DNA from: a virus
Taxonomy: Duplodnaviria > Caudoviricetes
DNA length: 64,000 nt
Direction: 5' to 3' (one strand)
Virus record (IMG/VR): IMGVR_UViG_2522572099_000001
Location: 8,283 to 72,282 of that record
The notes beneath the pieces are model-generated. The model was not told the origin of the DNA and searched no databases. It saw only the letters and a list, made by a program, of their open reading frames with translations. The position numbers and the translations under genes were made by a program. Positions 37,262 to 37,330 of this stretch are shown piece by piece (positions within the stretch are counted from its first letter, which is position 1; every line of letters starts with the position of its first letter).

Positions 37262-37330
37262 GCGGATGCTCCGTGAGAGATGCCTGTTCCACAGGCGTTG
37301 AGCCAGGCTTGACACCTGGCATCCGCTCCA
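37262..37330 (+). tRNA. Non-canonical tRNA-Gly(UCC) with reduced D arm and encoded CCA
   Basis: Acceptor GCGGATG/CATCCGC, U73, CCA; anticodon arm TGCCT-GTTCCAC-AGGCG; T arm CCAGG-CTTGACA-CCTGG; 69 nt. Confidence 0.75.

Follow-up and report, generated by a model that had tools for sequence, protein, structure and literature searches.

The window discussed here, i.e., the entire stretch of 64,000 nucleotides (nt) that was analysed, comprises bases 8283 to 72282 of a virus record of 72,282 bp (IMGVR_UViG_2522572099_000001). Our subject is a gene for a tRNA-Gly-like RNA without a D arm. It measures 69 nt, occupies positions 37262 to 37330 of the plus strand and was delineated by its sequence, by two covariance models (R1 and R2, see below), by its homologues and by covariation. 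It lies in a gap of about 680 bp between a gene for a protein of 447 amino acids (aa; 35550-36893) and a small gene at 37575. Upstream are the terminase and portal genes and a cluster with pyridoxal phosphate (PLP), methyltransferase and radical S-adenosylmethionine (SAM) genes; scaffold and major head genes follow downstream. The second gene to be considered, 26898 to 28214 on the same strand, encodes a fusion protein of 438 aa with a Dam-like half (PF22555, 172 bits, residues 2-251) and a GNAT half (PF22559, 154 bits, residues 278-434).

From 5' to 3' the RNA reads GCGGAUG-CUCCGUGAGAGA-UGCCU-GUUCCAC-AGGCG-UUGAG-CCAGG-CUUGACA-CCUGG-CAUCCGC-U-CCA. Its acceptor stem (GCGGAUG/CAUCCGC, 37262-37268 with 37320-37326) consists of seven perfect pairs and is followed by U73 (37327) and an encoded CCA (37328-37330). 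The anticodon arm (37281-37297) has the stem UGCCU/AGGCG and the 7-nt loop GUUCCAC, with the anticodon UCC at 37288-37290. A variable loop, UUGAG (37298-37302), leads to the T arm (37303-37319), the stem of which, CCAGG/CCUGG, has 5 bp. The helix set of a canonical tRNA, i.e., an acceptor stem of 7 bp, a discriminator base, an anticodon stem of 5 bp with a loop of 7 nt and a T stem of 5 bp, is complete. The canonical elbow, made up of a D arm with G18G19 and a T loop of the type UUCRANY, is missing: the D-replacement loop (37269-37280) is just 12 nt long, CUCCGUGAGAGA, and contains no GG, and the T loop is CUUGACA. A preliminary description of the window had listed these traits of a 69-nt cloverleaf, and every one of them is present in the sequence. 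Within the anticodon loop, G32 and C38 can pair, which shrinks the loop to 5 nt; the minimum free energy (MFE) fold closes it. Immediately before G1 stands a 5-nt leader, AGUUU (37257-37261, plus strand); the block of similarity to related elements starts at 37257.

That standard tRNA finders may overlook such a molecule had been anticipated, and they do. ARAGORN in its standard mode, even with lowered thresholds, calls the neighbouring tRNA only. Rfam leaves the element unmatched both at the gathering threshold (RF00005, 29 bits) and at E<=10 in positions 37000-37700 (701 nt). The MFE fold of the element sequence alone is not a cloverleaf (z -2.85). In the metazoan-mitochondrial mode of ARAGORN the element does appear, as a D-loop mtRNA-Gly(tcc) with identical ends. 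By itself this call is no evidence, because the same mode makes nine calls in the 64-kb window; two of the nine, the element included, survive the setting -ps108, and the other survivor is in the terminal repeat of the record. A promoter and terminator scan of 36700-38000 gave nothing exceeding the level of shuffled sequence, and BLAST of 36800-37900 against the annotated phage collection gave no match. Two DNA sequencing runs contained the source assembly and low-depth identical fragments only.

Homologues came from two covariance models. R1 is built on the single window sequence with the proposed cloverleaf; R2, the second model, scored the hits of two exact-pattern scans of IMG/VR, one with and one without CCAC as a requirement. 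(L and G numbers are labels of the loci and records compared; L136 is G208.) R1 produced full-length matches in all five whole proviruses that were reached via the Dam-like/GNAT protein (43.8-97.4 bits), R2 in nine isolate-derived provirus records besides that of the window (72.9-97.6 bits) and in the metagenome record G208 (37.7 bits). The covariance search in related phages, a check proposed at the outset, has thereby turned up full-length homologues in ten other records; with the window, the carriers number eleven, and they comprise eight distinct full-length variants. When positions 34000-40000 were compared by BLAST with the five proviruses, L079, L080 and L081 matched solely at 37257-37331, with 88-96% identity across the matches. 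The edges of conservation are those of the proposed RNA plus its 5-nt leader, and the flanks are otherwise unrelated. AGTTT precedes G1 in the window and in four of the five proviruses compared. The setting differs, too: in the other proviruses the element is flanked by a different major head gene (phrog_264) on its 5' side and a phrog_2085 gene on its 3' side; in the window it stands before the scaffold gene.

Two alignments, A3 with 6 sequences and A4 with 9 distinct rows, were used to look at base pairing. Both were fitted to the model structure and thus lean towards it, which has to be kept in mind with the following numbers: in A3, six pairs change on both sides, a count reached by none of 500 shuffles and falling to zero when the 3' partner is slid by 1-3 columns, and in A4 seven pairs do so, in 17 cells, a count reached by 1 of 500 shuffles, with 97.2% of the cells paired. 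The double changes are all located in the anticodon and T helices. The acceptor helix shows no covariation because its sequence is nearly constant; all nine distinct rows agree in pairs 1-5 and U73, and the CCA end is kept in eight of them (L095 has UGCA in place of UCCA). The anticodon loop occurs as GUUCCAC, GUCCCAC, GCCCCAC and GUACCAC and, shortened to 6 nt, as GCCCAC in three records. C35, C36, A37 and C38 are fixed. Position 34 is U, C or A, so that the anticodon is always NCC (UCC, CCC or ACC), and no family member with a different anticodon emerged from the pattern scan in which CCAC was optional. The D arm is absent from all eight full-length variants. The T loop is non-canonical in the window group; the L097-type and L082-type variants have a canonical UUCGAUU, which suggests descent from an ordinary tRNA.

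The nucleotides by which glycyl-tRNA synthetase (GlyRS) identifies tRNA-Gly are G1-C72, C2-G71, G3-C70, U73, C35 and C36. All six of these elements are present in the window copy, as the preliminary description had stated, and they are conserved in the homologues: pairs 1-3 and U73 in 9/9 distinct rows, C35 and C36 in 8/8 full-length variants. Random decay in the homologues, which would have spoken against a function, is not what is seen; the acceptor stem is nearly invariant and the inner helices change in a compensatory way. Judged from these alignments, the element is a real and selected RNA gene that descends from tRNA-Gly. It stands above a chance fold because it is conserved as a discrete unit with covariation. 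The pattern of constraint is the one expected of an RNA that a synthetase would recognise as tRNA-Gly and that would have no need to read codons.

Several weaker candidates were not taken into the family. L092, L094 and L098 lack the CCA and are not matched by R2 at E<=0.1, and L091 reaches just 15.2 bits. Eleven others (L107, L110, L112, L115, L109, L120, L108, L114, L116, L118 and L119; 15-27 bits) match only at the typed ends and were judged to be chance or coding sequence. L111, L113, L117 and L121 (25-29 bits), which have the acceptor and a GCGAGG motif in common, may be remote relatives. PF22559 was not found in any of eight records, i.e., seven with doubtful matches and G220, the record with the strong copy L093; all eight are fragments, with an estimated completeness of 16-72%.

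The probable partner of the RNA is the Dam-like/GNAT gene. In ten of the eleven carriers the gene is found in the same record; the eleventh carrier is a fragment, and the gene sits on a sibling contig of the same source. In G208, the most distant carrier, the enzyme is 37% identical to that of the window, and the RNA lies about 490 nt upstream of its gene on the same strand. Among 151 Mesorhizobium genomes three have an R2 match and two have PF22559, and these two are among the three; in both of them RNA and gene share one contig and one strand at a distance of 14-15 kb. The third genome, G172, has an RNA copy with a 2-nt bulge in the acceptor stem, and two queries did not find a Dam-like/GNAT gene there. 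In the window no tRNA-like gene is placed directly upstream of the fusion gene; the RNA lies on the same strand but 9,047 nt beyond the end of that gene, and R1 found no other credible copy over the window (next best 13.7 bits, E 1.4). Because of this distance of 9 kb, the RNA would have to act in trans rather than as a leader or cis-regulator of the fusion gene. Directly 3' of the fusion gene follows a ParB-like gene (28156-28932, plus strand; phrog_7405, E 3.6e-59, and several ParB-like PHROGs), the start of which is uncertain, as its open reading frame (ORF) overlaps the end of the fusion gene. The same order, fusion gene and then ParB-like gene, was seen in G208 by tblastx. The ParB-like gene is probably the third member of the unit.

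The association extends beyond the family proper. An alignment-based scan collected 80 Dam-like/GNAT loci with flanks of 4 kb. Standard ARAGORN calls a same-strand tRNA at 59 of them, the distance to the gene downstream being 56-935 nt (median 508). Fifty-four of these are Gly-like tRNAs of a GCGGAAA type, in eight sequence variants. They have G1-C72, C2-G71, G3-C70 and U73, their D and T arms are normal, and their anticodon loop, AUUCCA, has 6 nt; ARAGORN labels them 'tRNA-?(Glu|Gly)(tc)'. The others are two tRNA-Gly (UCC and ACC) with non-consensus T loops, one tRNA-Pro(UGG) and two of another type. R2, a regular expression or the mitochondrial mode added Gly-like elements at L136, L134 and L199; a Gly(acc) element at L187, downstream of the gene, is tentative, as the mitochondrial mode of ARAGORN has a high rate of false positives. 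At nine Mesorhizobium-type loci the RNA is elsewhere in the record or on a sibling contig. A control of 58 capsid-anchored phage loci (631 kb versus 686 kb) contained a tRNA at two, both of them tRNA-Met and none Gly-like. The distant loci thus differ from the window: there, the RNA immediately precedes the enzyme gene and has in most cases retained a D arm; here, it has none and lies 9 kb from the gene, in the head-gene region.

Some of the distant genes have a non-Gly tRNA directly upstream, namely at L201 3502-3574 (identical with L077 9502-9574), L195 304-375 and L196 2791-2863. One type is a normal-looking tRNA-Pro(UGG); the other combines an ACAGCGA acceptor and A73-CCA with an anticodon loop that is short or odd. 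The enzymes concerned may use other aminoacyl groups. The Dam-like/GNAT ORF of L187 (2594-4780, plus strand) is unusual in another respect: it has 729 aa and carries, right after the PPTY motif in its Dam-like domain, an insertion of about 260 residues with an intein-like look.

The proposal that the RNA serves a phage enzyme, in its version that names the GNAT protein, has gained ground from the co-occurrence in eleven carriers, the adjacency in G208 and the Gly-like tRNAs at distant homologues. Its chemical precedent is Mom of phage Mu. According to the main text of Silva et al. (Nat Commun 2026, PMC13219725), this GNAT protein transfers glycine from Gly-tRNAGly to N6 of adenine in double-stranded DNA, whereupon the glycyl group rearranges to a carbamoylmethyl form. 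All three tRNAGly isoacceptors of E. coli serve Mom, glycine on tRNAAla does not, and the enzyme probably reads mainly the 3' acceptor end of the tRNA (PMC13219725, main text). No mention of a phage-encoded tRNA was found in that main text, and our literature searches found no description of a phage-private tRNA for a Mom-like enzyme.

The private glycyl donor is the best reading, because the GNAT protein Mom uses Gly-tRNAGly (PMC13219725, main text) and because the RNA tracks the Dam-like/GNAT gene. We consider it probable that the RNA does not decode and works in trans, as a glycyl carrier reserved for the Dam-like/GNAT enzyme. The steps that we infer, i.e., expression, charging, transfer to DNA and the chemical product, start from three observations: the structure of the RNA, its conservation and the linkage of the two genes in the genome. 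Transcription along with the late genes would produce the RNA, and trimming would leave it with the encoded CCA as its 3' end. The host GlyRS would then charge it with glycine, and in this form it would act in trans as the private glycyl carrier of the fusion protein encoded at 26898-28214. The methylase-like half of that protein would pick out an adenine in the DNA and flip it, and onto this base the GNAT half would load the glycyl group, in the way Mom of Mu does with host Gly-tRNAGly. The RNA keeps the features read by GlyRS and its CCA; what the ribosome and the tRNA elbow need, i.e., D arm, G18G19 and T-loop consensus, is gone in the window copy, and sister copies have lost even the 7-nt anticodon loop. 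The (D/N/S)PP(Y/F) motif site of the Dam-like half reads SYPPFF in the window and mostly FPPTY elsewhere. This hints at a non-methylating adenine-binding module.

The resemblance to Mu Mom (PF25680, PDB 8BV8) comprises a phage GNAT fold and, if the reading holds, DNA adenine as the target and glycine on a tRNA-Gly acceptor end as the donor; late expression is likely in both cases, and the acceptor end, which Mom probably reads, is just the part conserved in the RNA. The two systems also differ. Mu relies on any host tRNAGly isoacceptor and encodes no tRNA, whereas the phage considered here would bring its own non-decoding RNA. Its GNAT domain, unlike Mom, belongs to PF22559, is fused to a Dam-like PF22555 domain and is followed by the ParB-like gene.

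A cellular parallel exists in Staphylococcus, where non-proteogenic tRNAGly isoacceptors feed the synthesis of the peptidoglycan bridge by FemXAB. These tRNAs, too, retain the GlyRS identity and have lost G18G19 and other features required for translation, and they, too, are reserved for an aminoacyl transferase of the GNAT fold outside the ribosome. They are, however, cellular and of full size, with a D arm and a normal 7-nt loop, and their substrate is a lipid-linked peptide; the phage RNA has no D arm, its sister copies have 6-nt loops, and its substrate would be DNA. In architecture the RNA resembles the D-arm-less mitochondrial tRNAs, e.g., the metazoan tRNA-Ser(AGY), which likewise consist of acceptor, short replacement loop, anticodon arm and T arm. 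The latter decode on specialised mitoribosomes with adapted factors, whereas the phage RNA resides in a bacterial prophage and shows signs of being non-decoding.

A number of observations weigh against the private glycyl carrier. A bacterial GlyRS is not known to charge any D-arm-less tRNA. The model of the GNAT domain is of good quality (predicted local distance difference test 91.5) and has the GNAT fold, yet the top Foldseek matches are generic acetyltransferases, and Mom is absent among the 49 matches listed. Upon realignment Mom (8bv8_B) reaches Z 10.4 with a root-mean-square deviation of 3.3 over 139 aligned residues and rank 17, the top generic GNAT protein Z 12.2; Mom is tied structurally with many generic acetyltransferases. 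The GNAT domains of the window, L138 and L136 match PF22559 only, with no hit to PF25680 at E<=10, a family on which Mu Mom, as the positive control, scores 253 bits. The comparison of the GNAT alignment A6 with Mu Mom by hhalign was not significant (E 0.29), and a search of PDB sequences with the A5 profile had no match at E<=10. As there is no Mom-family match and Mom is structurally tied with generic acetyltransferases, acyl-CoA is a possible alternative donor for the fused GNAT domain. Eight of the 80 loci lack a tRNA-like element within 4 kb by any method used, and the few loci with a Pro-type or another non-Gly tRNA do not conform either. Most carriers are, moreover, related Mesorhizobium proviruses with 70-90% DNA identity in the early region, the Dam-like/GNAT gene included, so that the number of independent events is much smaller than the eleven co-occurrences; among the three genome hits, G090 and G091 repeat variants of IMG/VR records. 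Finally, two copies in GNAT-bearing records have lesions: L095 a G-G mismatch at pair 7 besides its UGCA end, L089 a 1-nt deletion in the T stem.

A more specific version of the private carrier can be formulated, for which we see about even chances: a minimal, D-arm-less tRNA would be charged by GlyRS, stay off the ribosome and have the sole job of delivering glycine to an adenine-targeting DNA-modifying enzyme of the methylase-like/GNAT kind, while in sister lineages, with tRNAs of the Pro or another type ahead of the enzyme gene, different aminoacyl groups would be put on DNA. If this is true, phages carry a private aminoacyl carrier for DNA hypermodification, and the reaction is insulated from the translational tRNA pool and from host defences directed against tRNA. 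The RNA would be a viral counterpart of the staphylococcal non-proteogenic tRNAs, and the size limit for natural tRNA-like substrates of bacterial GlyRS would move down to include a D-arm-less molecule. There would be an explanation for a class of phage tRNAs that look odd or stay invisible, being overlooked in annotation or labelled undetermined, and the PF22555/PF22559 fusion together with a Gly-like RNA would become a genomic marker for new adenine hypermodifications. The 9-kb separation of RNA and gene in the window is a natural test of action in trans. tRNA-dependent DNA modification itself has been established only just now, with Mu Mom and a host tRNA (PMC13219725, main text).

Other explanations have to be considered. 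An unlikely one, though the best of the rest, is a structured RNA, acting in cis or in trans, that has nothing to do with aminoacyl transfer, for instance a processing signal for RNase P or CCA-end maturation that punctuates the late transcript. Conservation is indeed strongest in the acceptor helix, at the UCCA end and in the U-rich leader, and in every Mesorhizobium-type provirus the element lies within the late structural operon on the coding strand. The prophage of Mesorhizobium loti DSM 2626 retains a 24-nt hairpin limited to those parts: GCGGACG-CUCCGA-CUUCCGC-UCCA at L002 7543-7566 (identical with L062 6543-6566), preceded by an AGUUU-type leader, AGTTTC in the DNA. The match is weak (R1 20.3 bits, E 0.024; R2 20.5 bits, E 0.094, both E values being rough). 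The hairpin, which is akin to an acceptor-stem microhelix of the element, may be a relic. A processing signal would leave unexplained why the CC-A-C of the anticodon loop is conserved, why the RNA tracks the Dam-like/GNAT gene across unrelated head modules and is adjacent to it in G208, and why a Gly-like tRNA stands directly upstream of distant homologues of the enzyme.

Very doubtful is a decoy or sponge for host defences that attack the acceptor end or the anticodon of tRNA-Gly, i.e., acceptor-stem-reading toxins or anticodon nucleases. Retention of the identity elements with loss of the translation features would suit such a role, and a toxic small alarmone synthetase (toxSAS) with an implied part in antiphage immunity, for which the acceptor stem is the mark of tRNAGly, is reported in a preprint (bioRxiv 10.1101/2024.07.05.602228). 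There is, however, nothing that would bind a decoy to a single enzyme gene across many lineages, and no toxin or antitoxin partner was seen adjoining the element, the neighbours of which are only partly annotated. For anticodon nucleases in particular, the opponents suggested in the preliminary description, nothing was found in favour.

Highly improbable is an elongator tRNA-Gly, odd but working, that would decode GGA and GGG in phage genes. The window copy does have a 7-nt loop with a U33-like U, UCC and A37, it lies 12 nt before a tRNA that Rfam accepts, and phages often carry tRNAs for rare codons; GGA and GGG together make up 16% of the Gly codons in 18 long ORFs of the window. Yet the D arm is absent in 8/8 full-length variants, the T loop of the window group is off consensus, the G32-C38 pair can cut the anticodon loop to 5 nt, position 34 drifts, and one variant as well as the 54 distant relatives have 6-nt loops. 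The RNA is, furthermore, the sole tRNA-like gene in four of the five whole carrier proviruses. That codon supply is an unlikely task had been surmised from codon usage; it agrees with the minor share of the two codons (GGA 6.1%, GGG 10%) and with the drift of the anticodon between copies. Least probable of all is a decaying tRNA pseudogene carried by chance: lesions in L095, L089 and G172, the mere remnant in M. loti and the lack of a partner gene adjacent to the RNA in the window would fit, but an island of 88-96% identity within unalignable flanks, compensatory changes that keep both inner helices, a nearly invariant acceptor stem and the negative searches for a Dam-like/GNAT gene in the genomes of the two most damaged copies (G172 and M. 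loti) do not.

The M. loti prophage also bears on the second partner that had been considered for the RNA, the accessory cluster between the portal and scaffold genes. Its four genes (32640-36893, plus strand) encode a PLP aminotransferase-like protein, a class I methyltransferase, a radical SAM protein and the above-mentioned 447-aa protein, which matches no family. The best relative of the latter, 77% identical, is in the M. loti prophage; scans with the protein found no relatives in metagenomes and, among genome contigs, the M. loti prophage only. The four-gene cluster is common only to the window and this prophage, which has the cluster and a tRNA-Met along with the RNA remnant; the Dam-like/GNAT protein has no match there. 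None of the five whole carrier proviruses matches the 447-aa protein. The cluster is not linked to the RNA, and the comparison does not support it as a partner.

The longest exact word common to the intergenic regions of the window and of M. loti is the 11-nt TCCGCTCCAGA; since 19 of 300 shuffles reach this length, the match is weak evidence on its own. Right after the stop codon of the 447-aa gene both phages have the series CTTGAC ... TGTAACCA ... TGGCACCA (window 36890-36925, L002 7215-7260). The stretch could be a promoter or a recombination scar; a scan for consensus promoters gave nothing at this place.

As to the nature of the record, which comes from Mesorhizobium, a tyrosine integrase is encoded at one of its ends (G000:C1:671-1162, minus strand), and a direct repeat of 95 nt is present at both (window 63906-64000 and G000:C1:1-95). 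The repeat adjoins the integrase and opens with the 5' portion of a tRNA-Thr(GGU)-like gene. Because of the terminal integrase and this repeat, the record is most likely a prophage excised at attL/attR, and the repeat would not be a terminal repeat of the virion. The element was also considered as an attP site. This was rejected: on the circle, about 27 kb separate the element from the single integrase match, and the likely attachment site is the 95-nt repeat. No serine recombinase was found.

The element is followed by a type II tRNA at about 37342-37434 on the plus strand, which ARAGORN calls tRNA-Ser(AGA) with A34 and which RF00005 matches with 37.9 bits. It is odd in its own way, with a long variable arm, a 6-bp anticodon stem, the loop UUAGAAC and no encoded CCA. 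At L078, in provirus G204, the type II tRNA is lacking, and the element is directly followed by a homologue of window 37450-37507 (BLAST); the tRNA was, therefore, either inserted in the window or lost in L078. Just before it, at window position 37335, GGCACCAG recurs.

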